Shown here one piece after another: positions 2,221 to 8,354 of a DNA stretch of 20,521 nt. The translations under genes and the position numbers were made by a program. The DNA is from a virus. The number at the start of each line of letters is the position of its first letter. Position 1 is the stretch's first letter. Where the stretch lies: the UHGV virus genome UHGV-0255412. One strand, 5' to 3'. The notes beneath the pieces are model-generated. The model was not told where the DNA came from. It saw nothing but the letters and a program-made list of their open reading frames with translations, and ran no database searches.

Positions 2221-3180
2221 ATGAAAATTTGTATCGACGACGGCTCCACCAACATCAAGCTGGCATGGACTGAGAACGGCGAACGCCGCAACGCCATCAG
2301 CCCGAACAGCTTCAAGTCGGAATGGTCTGCGCCGTTCGGTGGCACGCAGCCCGCGAACTACATGCTTGATGGCGTGCGCTATGGTTTTGATCCGGTCAGC
2401 GATCGCTTTGTCCAGACGACCGACACGCAATACCAATACAGCGATGTGAATGTCATTGCCATTCATCACGCGCTGGTCAAATCAGGCATCACGCCACAGG
2501 AGGTGGATGTGGTTGTCACCCTGCCACTGAGCGAGTATTTCGACACAAACGCACAGCCGGACATGGCCAACATCAACCGCAAAAAAGCGAACGTTATGCG
2601 CCCGGTGGAGTACCAGAACGGTGAGGCATTCACTATCCGTAACGTGCGGGTTATGCCTGAATCCATTCCGGCAGGCTTTAAGGCACTGGCTGACATGAGT
2701 CCGTTTGAATCCCTGCTGATTGTGGATTTGGGCGGAACCACGCTGGATGTGGCAAAGGTTCAGGGACAACTGGCAGGTATCAGCCAGGTGTTTTGCGATC
2801 CACACGTAGGCGTTTCCCTGATGGCCGATGCCGTACTGTCGGTGATGGCCACTAACGGTATGCGTACCAGTCACCACATCGCCAATACCATTATCGAACA
2901 TCGCCATGATGAAGCCTGGCTGCGCCAGCACATCCACAATGACGCGCATTACGTCAGCCTGATGGCGGTTATTCGTGAAAAGGAAGAAACACTGAAACAA
3001 CGCGTGATCCGCGCGCTGGCGGGTTTTTCGGGTTACGGGCGGGTGATGGTTGTCGGTGGCGGGGCGGAGATTGTGGCACCCGCTATCCGCGAAGCCTGCG
3101 GAGTTAATGCGACTTTCATCGCGGACGAGGTGCCACAGTTTGCTCTGGTTAATGGGCTGTACGCAATGGACAAGGAGTAA
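2221..3180 (+). CDS. parM: ParM/StbA-family actin-like partition ATPase
   Basis: N-terminus MKICIDDGSTNIKLAW...ISPNSFKSEW...YSDVNVIAIHHAL...EVDVVVTLPL...DLGGTTLDV closely matches my recollection of plasmid R1 ParM (MLVFIDDGSTNIKLQW...). RBS AAGGAA 7 nt upstream of the ATG. 319 aa, typical ParM length. Confidence 0.85.
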   Translation: MKICIDDGSTNIKLAWTENGERRNAISPNSFKSEWSAPFGGTQPANYMLDGVRYGFDPVSDRFVQTTDTQYQYSDVNVIAIHHALVKSGITPQEVDVVVTLPLSEYFDTNAQPDMANINRKKANVMRPVEYQNGEAFTIRNVRVMPESIPAGFKALADMSPFESLLIVDLGGTTLDVAKVQGQLAGISQVFCDPHVGVSLMADAVLSVMATNGMRTSHHIANTIIEHRHDEAWLRQHIHNDAHYVSLMAVIREKEETLKQRVIRALAGFSGYGRVMVVGGGAEIVAPAIREACGVNATFIADEVPQFALVNGLYAMDKE

Positions 3181-3184
3181 ACCA

Positions 3185-3496
3185 ATGACGACACCAACCA
3201 GACGGATAAGTTTCTATCTGAAGCCCGCCGCCGTCAAGAATGAAGGCGAAGCATGCGCATGGCTGGACAGCCTTACACCAGAAGCCCGCAAAAGCGGCCA
3301 ACGCGTGGCTTTTCTGGCCGGGCTGGCACTTCTGAAAATGAATCCGGCAGAGGCTTACCGACTGGCTGCATGGGCTGACGATGAGGCGTTATCAGTGACA
3401 CAAACCAGGACAGAGTGCCCCTTGTCACAGCCAGTACCAACCGCACAGATAACCAGTCAGATGGCTGGGAATATCCGGGCGTTGTTTCCTGAATAA
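3185..3496 (+). CDS. parR: ParR/StbB-like partition adaptor (DNA-binding)
   Basis: 104-aa ORF immediately after parM, with AGGAG 7 nt upstream of the ATG at 3185. The N-terminal pattern RRISFYLKP...LDSLTPEARKSGQRVAFLAGLALLK resembles R1 ParR (RRTIAFKLNP...LDSIPQGERSRLNRAALTAGLALYR). The longer track ORF starting at 3050 overlaps parM and was trimmed. Confidence 0.7.
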   Translation: MTTPTRRISFYLKPAAVKNEGEACAWLDSLTPEARKSGQRVAFLAGLALLKMNPAEAYRLAAWADDEALSVTQTRTECPLSQPVPTAQITSQMAGNIRALFPE

Positions 3497-3503
3497 CACA
3501 ACA

Positions 3504-3523
3504 TCAGGGCGAGTTCGCCCTGA
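3504..3523. terminator. Perfect hairpin (TCAGGGCGA-gt-TCGCCCTGA) between convergent genes; possible bidirectional terminator
   Basis: 9-bp perfect inverted repeat between the parR stop (3496) and the stop of the minus-strand 198-aa gene (3542). No strong T-tract on either side, so terminator function is uncertain. Confidence 0.4.
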
Positions 3524-3541
3524 TGCACAAAGCATGCTAAA

Positions 3542-4138
3542 TCAGAATTTAGTATGCAATTTATCTACCAATCGCTTAGCCTCATTAAGTAGTTTTTGGT
3601 ATTCCCTGCTATCGTTTTCCTGATCTTCATACGCTCGCCGAACACGCCATCGAAGAGCAAGGCATTTTAAATTCCGGTAAAACCTCGGATTACGCTTGCG
3701 GCACTCTTCCATATAAGGTTCAAAATGGACATCAAGAAAGATTAAGGTAGAACCATAAACACGATATAGATACCGCTCATCATACAAACCGTTATTCACG
3801 GCATTAGCACAACGCTCCCACTCATTAAAAATGAGTTTTAATGCTTTTGCTCCATCCGTTTGAGAATATTCCTCTTTTCCCCAATCAGCGATCGGAAAGT
3901 TATGGCGATCCTTATGAATACGTAGCACTTCTGACCACGCATCAACTATGTCCTTGTTACGTTTATATGCAGCCTCGAAATCCAACGAATTTTTTTCGCG
4001 CGACGTTTTTCTTTGATTTCGTATGCTAATCACTGCAATAAGCGCACCCGCAGCTCCTGGATAAAACGTAGGGCTGGATTCCCAAATACTGGAAAAAATT
4101 TTTCCTATATAACTAAGGGCAGAAAGAACTAGATCCAT
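3542..4138 (-). CDS. Hypothetical protein (198 aa) with a hydrophobic N-terminus; candidate accessory or defence cargo
   Basis: Long ORF on the minus strand within a visibly AT-rich segment that contrasts with the GC-rich phage backbone. N-terminal hydrophobic stretches (LVLSALSYIGKIF..., GAAGALIAVISI) suggest a membrane anchor. I recognise no family from the sequence. Confidence 0.6.
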   Translation of the reverse strand: MDLVLSALSYIGKIFSSIWESSPTFYPGAAGALIAVISIRNQRKTSREKNSLDFEAAYKRNKDIVDAWSEVLRIHKDRHNFPIADWGKEEYSQTDGAKALKLIFNEWERCANAVNNGLYDERYLYRVYGSTLIFLDVHFEPYMEECRKRNPRFYRNLKCLALRWRVRRAYEDQENDSREYQKLLNEAKRLVDKLHTKF

Positions 4139-4149
4139 TGTATTTAACC

Positions 4150-4174
4150 ATAAAAAATGGGAGCCAAAGCCCCC
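4150..4174 (-). terminator. Intrinsic-terminator-like hairpin plus U-tract on the minus strand, 12 nt upstream of the 198-aa gene start
   Basis: Minus-strand RNA would read GGGGGC-uuug-GCUCCC (6-bp stem with one G-U pair) followed by AUUUUUUAU. On the plus strand the same stem has an A-C mismatch, so the structure is better on the minus strand. Confidence 0.45.
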
Positions 4175-4206
4175 ATTCTACTGAAACTACTCTAAAAAAA
4201 CAGGAG

Positions 4207-4251
4207 TTAAACGTCCCAGTTTTCTTCGCTATAGATGCGGCGTACGGTCAT
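4207..4251 (-). CDS. Candidate 14-codon leader peptide (MTVRRIYSEENWDV) with a strong Shine-Dalgarno sequence
   Basis: Minus-strand AGGAGA 7 nt upstream of an ATG, then 14 codons and TAA, followed by the terminator-like hairpin and the 198-aa gene. Too short to call from composition alone. Confidence 0.2.
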   Translation of the reverse strand: MTVRRIYSEENWDV

Positions 4252-4491
4252 AGTTAGTCTCCTCTTTTCAATCATTTAAACATCACTAATTTACTTTTAA
4301 CATGGAGATGGTTTTACAGTTGTCAACCACCTCCCCCAAATCTGTTGGGGTAAGCTATCACGCCTACCATACACATACAATGATGAGGCTATATCGTGCA
4401 GCCACACCGACAAGGATAAGTACATCTTCTTCGCTGTCTTTATGTGACCAAATATAGCACATTTGAAGCGATATACATCCTGTAATGATAC

Positions 4492-4518
4492 TGCACAATA
4501 GTGCACAAATTTGCACAA
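4492..4518. repeat. Three direct TGCACAA repeats phased at exactly 10 bp (cTGCACAAta gTGCACAAat tTGCACAAtt)
   Basis: Read directly from the sequence at 4492-4498, 4502-4508 and 4512-4518. Additional copies of the heptamer occur at 4584-4590 and 3524-3530. Confidence 0.6.
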
Positions 4519-4891
4519 TTTTTTTGAACGACTTTTTGCCCTTCCGGCCCGCGTGGCGGCTGGATCCGTCAAGGATCCGTGCGTGCACAAAAAAACACGC
4601 TTTTTCTGCGCGCAGGTGACGGGGGAACAGCCCGCGTTTCAGGGGGTAAATAGCATTCCCTGAACGATGTCGCAGCGACACAACAGAATGGCTGTATCGC
4701 TCACGCTGAGCGTGAAAAAGACGTAAGGTGTTCTGATTTGATGGTATGAAAGGTAAGGCCGTCAAAATCGCACTGAGGCGGCGAGAACATGCAGTCAGCG
4801 CGGCGGGATTGTGTAAGAGTCTGGCCGTCGATGATAGCGATAAGTCGGAAGACGTCGTGAAATTATCTGATTGATACAGGAGCTGGAGAGT

Positions 4892-5547: not shown

Positions 5548-5574
5548 ACAGCCCCATCACGGGGCTGTTTTTTC
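5548..5574. terminator. Rho-independent terminator (CAGCCCC-atcac-GGGGCTG followed by TTTTTT), shared by convergent genes
   Basis: 7-bp GC-rich stem and T6 run directly after the stop of the 175-aa gene. The stop codon of minus-strand gene Q (5557-5559) lies inside the loop, and an A-run on the other side would give a U-tract for the minus-strand transcript. Confidence 0.65.
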
Positions 5575-6603
5575 ATCAAGAAGAGCATAAGAATTAAAAC
5601 GGATCACCTCTTCGCCAAGCCAGTCATTGATGTGCTTCATGGCCTCCATAACGGGCATCAGCTCGTTAATTGCGTAAACCCGCGCGGCCTTTTCCACATC
5701 ACCAAACGCACTTTTTTCACCCGGCATCGCCCCCATCAGTTGCGGCGGAACGCGGTGCGCAGCCAGCACATCATCACGGGATGCCGCCTTAACATTCATG
5801 AACTCATCCTTTGCGGTGATCTGCTGGAACGGCAAAATTTGCACACCTTCTTTGCCCCCGTTGGGCGCATGAATGAGCACGTTTTTAAACGCACCACCAC
5901 CACGTGCACCCTGTAGCGTTTCTTTCAGGGAGTCCATGCTTTCGCGGTTTACCTGCGCTGCACCGATGTAGATGATACACCCGGCGTGGGATCCGTTGTC
6001 GTAATACAGTTTTCTGAACATGTCCGCCGAATGAGACAGGCTGGCCGAGAGTAATGCGCCGAGATATTCCGGCATGCCGTAGATTTCCTGGTTAATGTCA
6101 GGATTCATCAGGTGGCACACTTTGCCAGGGCGAAACTGAAACGCGTCCTTGCCATCCTGCACATACCACCATGATTCAAGATCGCTTCCGCGTCGCATGT
6201 ATTTCGCCAGTGCGTGCCGTAATTTAAGCGGTTCGCCGAGCATATTGTTTCGAAGCTCAAGGAATGCGTTACCGAACACAAACCAGTCCAGCGCCAGCGC
6301 CGAGAAATCCTGCCGGGAAAGCAGCGGGTGCGGGATGTAGCAACCGAGTAATACATTGCGCTTAAAGTAAAGCGCAGACTGATGCCAGGACGTTTGCCGG
6401 GCAGCTCTTGCCAGACCGTACCAGTCCACCGGGGTTTCATACCACCGCCCGTTATCAGCACAGTACATATTGTCCAGCAGGTCATGCCCGGTCAGGCGAT
6501 AAGGACCATCAAATGTGAATGCACTGAGCGATGATTCTTTCCTGAGCGCATCAGCGAGATCAATGCGTGAACTCATGCGCACTTTTTTATTTTTTCTGCT
6601 CAT
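5557..6603 (-). CDS. Q: Portal protein gpQ
   Basis: 348 aa (P2 Q is ~344 aa). Sits directly downstream of, and 1 nt overlapped with, the terminase gene on the minus strand, as in the P2 P-Q operon. Confidence 0.85.
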   Translation of the reverse strand: MSRKNKKVRMSSRIDLADALRKESSLSAFTFDGPYRLTGHDLLDNMYCADNGRWYETPVDWYGLARAARQTSWHQSALYFKRNVLLGCYIPHPLLSRQDFSALALDWFVFGNAFLELRNNMLGEPLKLRHALAKYMRRGSDLESWWYVQDGKDAFQFRPGKVCHLMNPDINQEIYGMPEYLGALLSASLSHSADMFRKLYYDNGSHAGCIIYIGAAQVNRESMDSLKETLQGARGGGAFKNVLIHAPNGGKEGVQILPFQQITAKDEFMNVKAASRDDVLAAHRVPPQLMGAMPGEKSAFGDVEKAARVYAINELMPVMEAMKHINDWLGEEVIRFNSYALLDEKTAP

Positions 6604-8354
6604 CAGAACTCCATAACCGTGAAACGCTCGTTTTCTCCTTCGCCGCCAATCGGTTCGTTAATGACAGCAAGCATGGTTGCCCACGCAAGGTCGCCGTGGC
6701 TGATCCCCCTCGCGCGGTCCGTTTCGTAAGTGATAAAGCCGCCCGGTGTTTTCACCTTACGCACGGCGTTAAAGGCCGCAACCAGCTCGCGTTCGGCGCG
6801 ATCGTATTCCCACCGCCCGGCACGCATTATTTGCAGCATTTTCAGTACCAGCGACCGTTTTGATGACAGCGTGAAGGTGTACGGAATAGCAGCAGGGAAA
6901 AACCGTTTCACTATCTGATAAACAGCCTCCCCGTTCCCGCCCGTCACATCAATGCCGATGTGTTCCACGTTGTAGCGATACGTGAACTCTTCAATGACTC
7001 TGGCCTGTTCTTCAAACTCCAGCCCCTGAACGCGTCGCGTCTCCACCGTTCGAAAACGGCCACCAGGAACAGCCGGAGGAACCACCACGGACACAGCGCC
7101 GCTGTCGCCGTTGCCACTGCTGCCGTTTGCGTCATACCCAATCCATACCGGACGATTCCCCATCGGGCGGGGAGCAAAAGGTTTCCAGTCTTTCCAGTCG
7201 TCGTATCCGTCAACACCACAGCCAATCAGGATATTCAGGTTAAATGCCGATTCCCCTTCGCGGACAAACTCACACATATAGAGATTGAGGAACTCGTCTT
7301 CGGTGTTTTCATCACGAATTTCATCAATATCGGTGTGTTTCCAGCCGTGATTAACCACATCTTCCAGCGTGACAATTTGCCGCCACGTCCGGTCAGGGCA
7401 GATAAGCCCGTTATGCAGCGTTTTCCAGTCCACAGAAAAACGCTGGCGTTTATGCGAGGCCTTTTTCTCGTTCCAGCGGTCGCCGTTCCAGTAGGCGTAT
7501 GCCTCGTGCGTTTCGGTGGATGGCGTGGAGAAGTAGGTGCGCCGCAGTCCGCTGAGGGTTGCCATAGCGCCAGCCACCTTGCGCAGTTCAGCAAAGCGAC
7601 TGACCCAGAAAAATTCATCAAAATAAAAATTGCCCGTATAGGACTGTGCCGACGCAGCAGAAGTACCGAGAAAATGCAGCTCTGCGCCGTTGGAGAGGAT
7701 GATTTTATCGCCCCCTTTCAGCTCCACATCAACTTCAGCCGCGGCTTTCTGAATAATGCTTTTAAACTGGAACGCCTGACGACGCGACGCAGACAAAAAA
7801 ATCTGGTTACGCTGGTAAGGTTGCGCCACATCGTCACGCAGCGCCATCAGCAGAGCTTCCTGTGCAAAATACCAGGTCGCCCCAATCTGTCGGGATTTCA
7901 GGATCATCCTGTTACGTATCCCGGCTTCCCTGCAAAGGGTCAGGGAGTCAAACCAGCCCCGCTGATGCCACTCCAGCCTGCTGATGATTTTTTCCCGCAG
8001 TGCGGCAATCTGCTCCGGCGTGAAATGATTTTTGAGTTTTTTCGCCCGGCCTTTCTTTCCTGTGGCCGTCGCATCCGGCTGGCCATCATGCAATTTTTTA
8101 AGCTGCCGGGTCAGCAGGTCTATTTCCTTGAAGTCACCACCTGTTTTATTCTGTTTTTCAGTGAGCTGGATGAGGCGCGCATCGATGGACTGCGTGACAC
8201 GCTGCACGGGTGGCGTTTCATCCCACTGGTCGCGTTTTTTCCACGCATAAATCGTGTTCGGGTTTATTCCCATCAGACGTGATATTTCTGCGGGCGGATA
8301 ACCCTGCCAGTAAAGTTGCCGCGCACGCTGGCGCACAAAAGCGTCCTGAATCAT
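6603..8354 (-). CDS. P: Terminase large (ATPase) subunit gpP
   Basis: 583 aa (P2 P is ~590 aa). N-terminal helix-turn-helix-like region (YPPAEISRLMGINPNTIYAWKKR) and length/position are typical of P2-family terminase ATPase. Divergent from gene O. Confidence 0.9.
   Translation of the reverse strand: MIQDAFVRQRARQLYWQGYPPAEISRLMGINPNTIYAWKKRDQWDETPPVQRVTQSIDARLIQLTEKQNKTGGDFKEIDLLTRQLKKLHDGQPDATATGKKGRAKKLKNHFTPEQIAALREKIISRLEWHQRGWFDSLTLCREAGIRNRMILKSRQIGATWYFAQEALLMALRDDVAQPYQRNQIFLSASRRQAFQFKSIIQKAAAEVDVELKGGDKIILSNGAELHFLGTSAASAQSYTGNFYFDEFFWVSRFAELRKVAGAMATLSGLRRTYFSTPSTETHEAYAYWNGDRWNEKKASHKRQRFSVDWKTLHNGLICPDRTWRQIVTLEDVVNHGWKHTDIDEIRDENTEDEFLNLYMCEFVREGESAFNLNILIGCGVDGYDDWKDWKPFAPRPMGNRPVWIGYDANGSSGNGDSGAVSVVVPPAVPGGRFRTVETRRVQGLEFEEQARVIEEFTYRYNVEHIGIDVTGGNGEAVYQIVKRFFPAAIPYTFTLSSKRSLVLKMLQIMRAGRWEYDRAERELVAAFNAVRKVKTPGGFITYETDRARGISHGDLAWATMLAVINEPIGGEGENERFTVMEF

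Follow-up and report, generated by a model that had tools for sequence, protein, structure and literature searches.

Cassettes in which a small first gene and an attenuating terminator precede a partner gene are known. In the microcin C system, transcription of the abundant short mccA RNA stops before mccB at an intrinsic terminator located between the two genes (Zukher et al. 2014, PMC4231749), and a terminator located directly in front of the toxin gene is a criterion of type III toxin-antitoxin systems (PMC3401426). The attenuators trpL, hisL and pheL and the leaders ermCL and msrDL share the order of a short open reading frame (ORF) led by a Shine-Dalgarno (SD) sequence and followed by an intrinsic terminator before the regulated gene. 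TnaC is a short ribosome arrest peptide with a comparable layout. An arrest peptide of only 14 amino acids (aa), PepNL, has been documented (PMC11890864). Here we describe an arrangement of this kind in a 20,521-nt stretch of the virus genome UHGV-0255412 (hereafter the window), in which a 14-codon micro-ORF and an intrinsic terminator precede the gene of a 198-aa protein of the DUF4760 family. As in the type III systems, the terminator resides directly before the gene of the putative effector. New is a family in which an apparently translated micropeptide is paired with an uncharacterised effector.

All elements of the cassette lie on the minus strand. The micro-ORF (4207-4251) comprises 14 codons and the stop codon TAA (4209-4207), encodes the peptide MTVRRIYSEENWDV and is preceded by the SD sequence AAGAGGAG (4259-4266), which is separated by 7 nt from the ATG (4251-4249). 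Its conserved residues EENWDV are encoded at 4227-4210, and the window contains the corresponding degenerate motif GARGARRAYTGGGR a single time, compared to 0.01 expected occurrences. A pyrimidine/U-rich spacer of 27 nt (4180-4206) leads to the intrinsic terminator (4152-4179), whose hairpin (4179-4154; 11 pairs in the terminator scan) is composed of the stem AGAAUGGGGGC / GCUCCCAUUUU and the loop UUUG and merges into a U6 tract (4157-4152). The DUF4760 gene (3542-4138) starts with the ATG at 4138, 13 nt beyond the U tract, and no SD-like core was found in the 18 nt preceding this ATG. On the minus-strand RNA the terminator reached -17.0 kcal/mol (z = -3.85 versus shuffles), while the same hairpin on the plus strand gave -9.4 kcal/mol, contained an internal mismatch and lacked a U tract. 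Thus, what a preliminary description of the locus had seen on the minus strand, i.e. a strong SD sequence driving a 14-codon ORF, a GC hairpin with a U tract within about 30 nt, the ATG of the 198-aa gene without a ribosome binding site shortly thereafter and a hairpin that is better on this strand, was recovered, except that the distance to the ATG is 13 instead of 12 nt. Two further candidates close to the hairpin were rejected. An AUG in its 5' arm, annotated as the DUF4760 start in P0003, is in frame only in the loci L011, L016, L017 and L019 and not in the window, and the SD-like 5' arm itself has no start codon at a usable distance and is therefore unsuitable as a ribosome binding site.

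The same arrangement was found in other DUF4760 loci, which were collected from Escherichia coli genomes, one-per-species genomes, viral contigs, metagenomes and phage records and to which seven distant family representatives identified by profile search were added. The contig scan of the one-per-species genomes yielded only 3 loci, and three scans of viral contigs using distant family members as queries found nothing. Altogether, the loci span Enterobacteria, Vibrio, Colwellia, Pseudomonas phages and metagenomes, with protein identities to the window gene down to about 21%. In 43 of 44 distinct loci, the DUF4760 gene comes after an SD-led ORF of 9-21 codons and a hairpin with a U tract, in this order. 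Since this order recurs in loci from very different bacteria and phages, we concluded that the cassette is a real genetic module and not a product of chance. All 32 distinct enterobacterial, Vibrio and marine loci possess an SD-led ORF of 12-17 codons with the motif E-E-[N/D/L]-W-[D/G]-hydrophobic, a spacer of 16-35 nt, a hairpin reaching -9.5 to -20 kcal/mol together with its U tract, and a DUF4760 start 4-35 nt beyond. The micro-ORFs of a Pseudomonas-phage clade, whose proteins are about 21% identical to the window protein, end with [R/N]EEYEG[I/F/L] and are followed by a terminator of the same kind. Six of the seven distant representatives also contain a micro-ORF and a terminator, with the peptides MMNVRMFSASEEDLGV, MYLEEDWEF, MYSEEEFLR, MTMTREQDFGS, MIFNEQDYGFFV and the degenerate MTMRDGDDGN; the forms of the motif are SEEDLGV, LEEDWEF, SEEEFLR, REQDFGS and NEQDYGFFV. 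The spacer between stop codon and hairpin measures 15-35 nt in all loci and is not conserved in sequence. In every database record inspected the micro-ORF was unannotated, so that annotation pipelines overlook this part of the DUF4760 loci entirely. Downstream of the hairpin, the sequence CCAUUUUUUAUGG(U/G)UAAAU and a start AUGGAU are common to the window (4139-4160) and to L060 and L061 of the Pseudomonas clade, the proteins of which have only about 21-25% identity. A mini-ORF of 2-12 codons, the AUG of which immediately follows the U tract, ends at or overlaps the DUF4760 start in several loci.

The peptide was studied in 37 distinct loci. Its E-E pair is invariant (37/37), W occurs in 32 loci and the next residue is G or D in 35. 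The mean entropy of the first two codon positions was 0.50 bits, that of the third position 0.81 bits and that of the 18 nt following the stop codon 1.74 bits. Synonymous codons vary within the motif: in the set of 32 loci the second E is encoded by GAA in 13 and by GAG in 19 cases, D by GAT or GAC, G by GGC or GGT and V by GTT, GTA, GTG or GTC, while W is invariably TGG (32/32). The only changes of the micro-ORF detected within E. coli, R5C and I6T, both affect the variable N-terminal half. The synonymous variation and the higher entropy of the third position indicate that the peptide sequence itself, and not merely the RNA, is under selection. As in arrest peptides, the aa-specific conservation is found close to the C-terminus (E-E-x-[W/Y]-[GD]-hydrophobic) with varying synonymous codons. 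The position of the motif is not fixed: 2-14 residues precede it and 0-4 residues follow its hydrophobic residue, the distance between motif and hairpin varies from about 25 to 59 nt, and TAA, TAG and TGA are all used as stop codons. This variable placement is more in line with a free peptide containing a short linear motif than with stalling at a site of fixed geometry. An SD-like core at -16 to -4 was present before the micro-ORF in all 37 loci. Before the DUF4760 gene it was found in only seven. In the window and most of its enterobacterial relatives the DUF4760 gene is devoid of an SD sequence; L056, L071, L005, L048 and L052 possess one of their own. The micro-ORF peptides HIFNEENWDV (L011) and RFNEENWDV (L013), which correspond to 4210-4233 of the window, look like the invariant DUF4760 motif (L/T)IFNEWERC (residues 102-110), a resemblance that may be coincidental or may reflect a peptide mimicking the partner helix.

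A hairpin with a U tract exists in every locus containing the micro-ORF. The 34 distinct hairpins exhibit several Watson-Crick pair types at every position of the stem, and by these compensatory changes the terminator is maintained as a structure. Because it lies between the micro-ORF and the DUF4760 gene, it must lower the expression of the latter. The 5' arms of all terminators (L004-L073 and the window) are rich in purines (mean 79%, minimum 64%) and often SD-like (GGAGG, GAGGU, AAGGA), and they also resemble the purine-rich EE-x-W-G codons of the micro-ORF; the 3' arms are similar to an anti-SD sequence (CCUCC, CACCUC).

The putative promoter of the window, recognised by sequence inference, consists of the -35 hexamer TTGTAT (4375-4380) 17 nt 5' of the extended -10 region TGATAGCTT (TGnTAnnnT; 4352-4360). 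A generic promoter scan missed the latter since its hexamer matches the consensus poorly. A TGnTAnnnT element is kept across clades about 50-110 nt 5' of the micro-ORF, with TTGTAT, TTGTGT or TTGTGC at equal -35 spacing in L011, L012, L013, L015, L016, L034, L037, L039 and L055 and TTGACT in the -35 position of L060 and L061; the counterpart in clade 2 reads TTGTGG-17-TATAAA. This conserved promoter predicts a single transcription unit starting near 4345. The predicted 5'-end of the transcript contains a small hairpin read from the sequence (CCCCAA-CAGA-UUUGGGGG; 4333-4350), and a related string, CGTCCAAACAGATTT, comes after the -10 region in the clade 2 loci. The hexamer TTGACA at 4326-4321 was rejected as a -35 region in favour of the conserved promoter at 4380-4352, as it is not conserved.

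The preliminary description had regarded the locus as an attenuator or a translational coupling device that keeps a potentially toxic gene off until a signal arrives, and had proposed RNA folding to compare terminator and antiterminator. For 32 loci, partition functions were calculated for the free RNA and for RNA masked by a 28-nt ribosome footprint, the centre of which was placed at the stop codon, at the W codon or at the first E codon. Under all four conditions the terminator had a probability of 0.92-1.0 in all 32 loci and no conserved alternative fold emerged. If the RNA was folded only up to the 5' arm, this arm showed no consistent partner; it paired with the 5' untranslated region in some loci and with the ORF, the spacer or nothing in others. 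Duplex energies compared to shuffles were weak as well, with a mean z of -0.64 for the ORF end and the spacer (1:2), -0.28 for the spacer and the 5' arm (2:3) and -1.28 for the motif codons and the 3' arm (1:4). Only in the EEDWGLS sub-clade did the motif codons pair strongly with the 3' arm (-14 to -16 kcal/mol, z about -3). This duplex was rejected as an antiterminator because the adjacent 5' arm would outcompete it; kinetically, the local hairpin wins. In the window, the local hairpin formed by the spacer and the end of the micro-ORF was weak and not significant (-8.4 kcal/mol, z = -1.26). The micro-ORFs do not contain a run of regulatory codons, as there is a single W codon and only E-E is repeated. 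Furthermore, a terminating ribosome cannot disturb the hairpin, since the stop codon always lies at least 15 nt before it; the edge of a ribosome located at the stop or W codon is still at least 5-40 nt away from the hairpin. Rfam, searched at a permissive E-value, revealed only chance hits below the gathering threshold (L20_leader, 20.1 versus 58.7 bits; SQ1002, 17.8 versus 128 bits). The stable terminator, the lack of a conserved alternative, the spacing and the codons support a fixed attenuator and not a switch between terminator and antiterminator. Hence, of the assumed attenuator the genuine minus-strand terminator and a leader ORF with the appearance of being translated were retained, but not its opening by a signal.

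We propose that the locus is a two-gene cassette setting the ratio of its products, the peptide of which acts in trans, a model that could equally well prove right or wrong. Its single promoter with the extended -10 region (4360-4352) would drive the micro-gene, the terminator and the DUF4760 gene. The well-translated micro-gene would give rise to the 14-aa peptide with the C-terminal EE-x-W-[DG]-hydrophobic as its selected part, and most transcripts would stop at 4152, yielding an abundant, hairpin-protected mRNA of roughly 190 nt that encodes the peptide only. A minority of transcripts would read through into the DUF4760 gene, which would also be poorly translated owing to its SD-less start directly behind the hairpin. 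As a net outcome, the peptide would be far more abundant than the DUF4760 protein. The strong SD sequence of the micro-ORF, its selected product, the terminator out of reach of the ribosome and the SD-less partner all fit one device producing much peptide and little DUF4760. The peptide might then act on or together with the DUF4760 protein, for which we favour a labile inhibitor: its level would track ongoing host gene expression, and upon shut-down of the host by a phage it would decay and thereby release DUF4760. This antitoxin-like version is tentative and, taken by itself, rather unlikely. The data show the anatomy of the cassette, its conservation, a selected peptide sequence and the lack of a conserved antiterminator; the transcript ratios, the action of the peptide in trans and a toxic or defensive role of DUF4760 are inferred.

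Several points weigh against this two-gene model. With 9-17 aa, a peptide that is stable and functional in the cytoplasm would fall below the usual size of an antitoxin or partner, and the aa conservation near the C-terminus and the stop codon also resembles that of cis-acting arrest peptides. The distant family member L066 does not contain a micro-ORF, so that the peptide is not indispensable throughout the family. A search of PADLOC-DB 2.0 assigned the DUF4760 protein to no defence family at E <= 0.01. Finally, folding was thermodynamic, and antitermination or read-through of a kinetic or factor-dependent kind may still occur.

Compared with mccA-mccB, the cassette has a similarly tiny, apparently well-translated first ORF (7 codons in mccA, 9-21 here), an intergenic terminator, minor read-through and a high peptide-to-protein ratio, the latter two being predictions of our model. 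However, MccA serves as substrate for adenylation by MccB and for an export and immunity operon, while here a single DUF4760 gene without a recognisable enzyme follows. No genes for modification enzymes of ribosomally synthesized and post-translationally modified peptides or microcins, for exporters or for immunity are adjacent to the cassette, whose neighbours are parR/parM and the cos/portal region. Moreover, in the mcc system upstream RNA attenuates the terminator and the ribosome restores it, whereas according to the folding predictions our terminator forms irrespective of a ribosome, and there is no sequence relationship between the two systems. Type III toxin-antitoxin systems (ToxIN, CptIN, TenpIN; Blower et al. 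2012, PMC3401426) share with the cassette the succession of promoter, small antitoxic element, ratio-setting terminator and effector, the location on mobile elements and, if a defensive role is assumed here, the activity against phages. Their antitoxin, though, is made of tandem RNA repeats processed by the endoribonuclease toxin. TRF detected no tandem repeats between promoter and terminator, its sole hit being a 10-nt unit with 3.2 copies upstream of the promoter (4488-4519), and the selection concerns the aa sequence of a translated peptide. Likewise, the effector is not ToxN/AbiQ-like, as it matches only DUF4760 of Pfam and no PADLOC family. Thus, the cassette belongs neither to the microcin C nor to the type III class. 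Should the peptide indeed act in trans, the logic of small first gene, terminator and effector known from RNA antitoxins and microcin precursors would extend to a translated micropeptide. The attenuators and leaders mentioned above, despite the same order of elements, depend on mutually exclusive terminator and antiterminator structures together with regulatory codons or a drug-dependent stall site, neither of which was found in the DUF4760 loci. Short arrest peptides like PepNL (PMC11890864) are similar in their very short upstream ORF and in conserved residues near the C-terminus including a Trp close to the stop codon, but they show no sequence similarity to the micropeptides, the stop codon and its distance from the motif are variable here, and neither an unmaskable rut site nor a hairpin is within reach of a stalled ribosome. 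Direct control of the hairpin by an arrested ribosome is disfavoured by the geometry, as at least 15 nt lie between the stop codon and the start of the hairpin.

A leader peptide acting in cis is nevertheless the basis of the main rival explanation, which refines the idea of the preliminary description. According to it, the nascent EE-x-W-[GD] motif stalls or destabilises the ribosome, constitutively or upon a small molecule, ionic or translational stress, and thereby alters either the read-through of the terminator or the translation of DUF4760; DUF4760 is induced by this signal and the released peptide has no function. Leader ORF, SD sequence and terminator are indeed in the classical order, the conservation at the aa level is concentrated in the last 5-7 residues, which is typical of arrest peptides, and PepNL (PMC11890864) documents that 14 aa can be sufficient. 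In addition, the motif is acidic, and its codons can pair with the 3' arm of the terminator in the EEDWGLS sub-clade (-14 to -16 kcal/mol). Acidic nascent chains can destabilise ribosomes, as described for MgtL (intrinsic ribosome destabilisation). Such a sensory leader is, on the other hand, difficult to reconcile with the folding data, which disclosed no conserved antiterminator (terminator probability 0.92-1.0, inconsistent partners of the 5' arm, mean z of -0.28 for 2:3), with the gap of at least 5-40 nt between the hairpin and a ribosome at the stop or W codon, with the varying distances from motif to stop codon (0-4 residues) and from motif to hairpin (about 25-59 nt), with the use of all three stop codons and with the lack of a run of identical regulatory codons. 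We consider it unlikely, though by no means negligible; if it applied, the cassettes would represent a new family of sensory nascent peptides ranging from Enterobacteria to Pseudomonas phages. 

The DUF4760 gene might also be an independent unit, the hairpin ending the micro-gene transcript and a separate promoter with the -10-like box TAGAAT (4180-4175) serving DUF4760; transcripts of this promoter would escape termination, as they would start inside the 5' arm of the hairpin. The 12 clade-1 spacers inspected by eye (window, L011-L013, L016-L019, L034, L035, L037, L039) all carry TA[GA][AG]AT (TAGAAT, TAAGAT, TAAAAT) directly next to the GC stem, and TAGAAT also exists in the distant L069 although the spacers cannot otherwise be aligned. 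Yet the window contains neither a recognisable -35 region nor a TG extension at this place, the promoter scan was empty, clade 2 and most other clades do not possess the box, and A/T-rich spacers readily yield -10-like hexamers. The conservation of the box is largely explained by its A residues pairing with the U tract, forming the usual A-tract of strong terminators. An internal promoter is improbable. Even less can be said for translational coupling, by which ribosomes finishing the micro-ORF would re-initiate at the SD-less AUG on read-through RNA and produce DUF4760 in proportion. It would account for the absence of an SD sequence before DUF4760 in about 30 of 37 loci, contrasting with its constant presence before the micro-ORF, and for the mini-ORFs directly past the U tract that meet or overlap the DUF4760 start (e.g., L011, L012, L022, L024, L061). 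But about 68 nt and a hairpin of -17 kcal/mol separate the stop codon of the window micro-ORF from the DUF4760 start, the frame and length of the mini-ORFs are not conserved, and several clades have an independent SD sequence (L056, L071, L005, L048, L052). As a general mechanism, the coupling suggested in the preliminary description is thus very unlikely. That a chance ORF happens to lie beside an ordinary terminator with no functional link would agree with the frequency of short ORFs and hairpins in A/T-rich intergenic DNA and with the unexceptional fold of the whole 181-nt leader (z = -1.78). However, 43 of 44 distinct loci from several bacterial orders share ORF, SD sequence, motif and terminator amid non-coding sequences that cannot be aligned, and by these comparative data chance is effectively refuted.

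The 198-aa protein was assigned to DUF4760 (Pfam PF15956, E = 1.2e-24) and to phrog_2284, a group of unknown function; no NCBIfam model matched it. An alignment of 29 homologues confirmed the start in the window, and the N-terminus of the window protein agrees with those of 28 homologues. The family comprises at least 554 clusters at 50% identity. In the literature searched, DUF4760 has a single, incidental mention, and neither the motif strings of the peptide nor the present arrangement were encountered. The AlphaFold2 model is all-alpha (pLDDT 89). Foldseek searches of PDB and BFVD with this model gave no significant neighbour, and a profile search of the PDB sequences found nothing. The N-terminal region of approximately 40 residues is only moderately hydrophobic (Kyte-Doolittle maximum 1.22), and anchoring of the protein in a membrane is possible but not established. 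A resemblance of the modelled fold to the EP domain of plant EDS1/PAD4 is a lead only, as it has no support at the sequence level and helical bundles can score in this way. This domain is regarded as plant-specific. Combining this lead with the labile peptide, one could imagine a widespread module of prophages and defence islands in which a cytoplasmic micropeptide of 9-21 aa, produced in excess owing to the built-in terminator, serves a helical effector with an EDS1/PAD4 EP-like fold as labile antitoxin or ligand. This idea is speculative and unlikely; if true, no smaller proteinaceous antitoxin or ligand than the micropeptide would be known, and the effector would possibly be a bacterial relative of a plant immunity domain. 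In any case, the near-obligatory micropeptide and the built-in terminator offer a concrete handle on the DUF4760 family, namely a stoichiometry device and a motif that can be mutated.

The window represents a P2-like prophage, with the cassette as variable cargo located between its parMR genes and cos. On the plus strand, the gene of the replication protein gpA (15-2144) is followed by the parMR region (2221-3496), composed of a ParM-like gene (2221-3180; StbA_N/ParM, E = 1.8e-82) and, 3' of it, a ParR-like "plasmid partitioning/stability" gene that is convergent with the DUF4760 gene. Such ParM and ParR-like genes between gpA and the cargo slot are unusual in an integrated P2-type phage. The portal (5557-6603) and large terminase (6603-8354) genes are located on the minus strand. 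The flank on the cos side (about 4489-4800) was detected in 1118 of 5426 complete E. coli genomes, while the stretch 4100-4490 together with the DUF4760 gene was present in only 15 of them. In other E. coli genomes, the same slot (about 3500-4490) beside the parR-like gene is occupied by an Ea22-like, a DUF3800 or a hypothetical gene. The more common flank, the rare DUF4760 stretch and the alternative genes identify the cassette as variable cargo of a prophage hotspot. In the Pseudomonas phage D14E the cassette adjoins cI, and at other loci integrase or HicAB genes. These surroundings are those of accessory or defence cargo.

Three direct repeats of TTGTGCA at 10-11-nt spacing (4488-4519; TRF period 10, 3.2 copies) lie exactly where the conserved cos-side flank gives way to the variable cargo. 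Another terminator-like hairpin with a U7 tract (4613-4595, minus strand) resides 3' of the portal-side genes near cos. At its opposite end, the cassette is closed by a terminator-like hairpin on the minus strand (3501-3526; 11 pairs, 7 GC in the terminator scan), which together with a hairpin on the plus strand (3532-3557) forms a back-to-back pair between the DUF4760 gene and the convergent parR-like gene. When the window was compared with L002 (E. coli A36), the divergence jumped at the junction of terminator and gene (4136-4152): from 350 nt upstream through the U tract the sequences are 98-100% identical, while the DUF4760 proteins share 88% aa identity right after the start. This suggests either that recombination has joined the leader module and the gene at this point or that the leader is under much stronger constraint. 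In E. coli EC556 (L001, 2876-3735) as well as in EC571 and EC581, an IS1B element is inserted approximately 7 codons into the DUF4760 gene, leaving promoter, micro-ORF and terminator unbroken.

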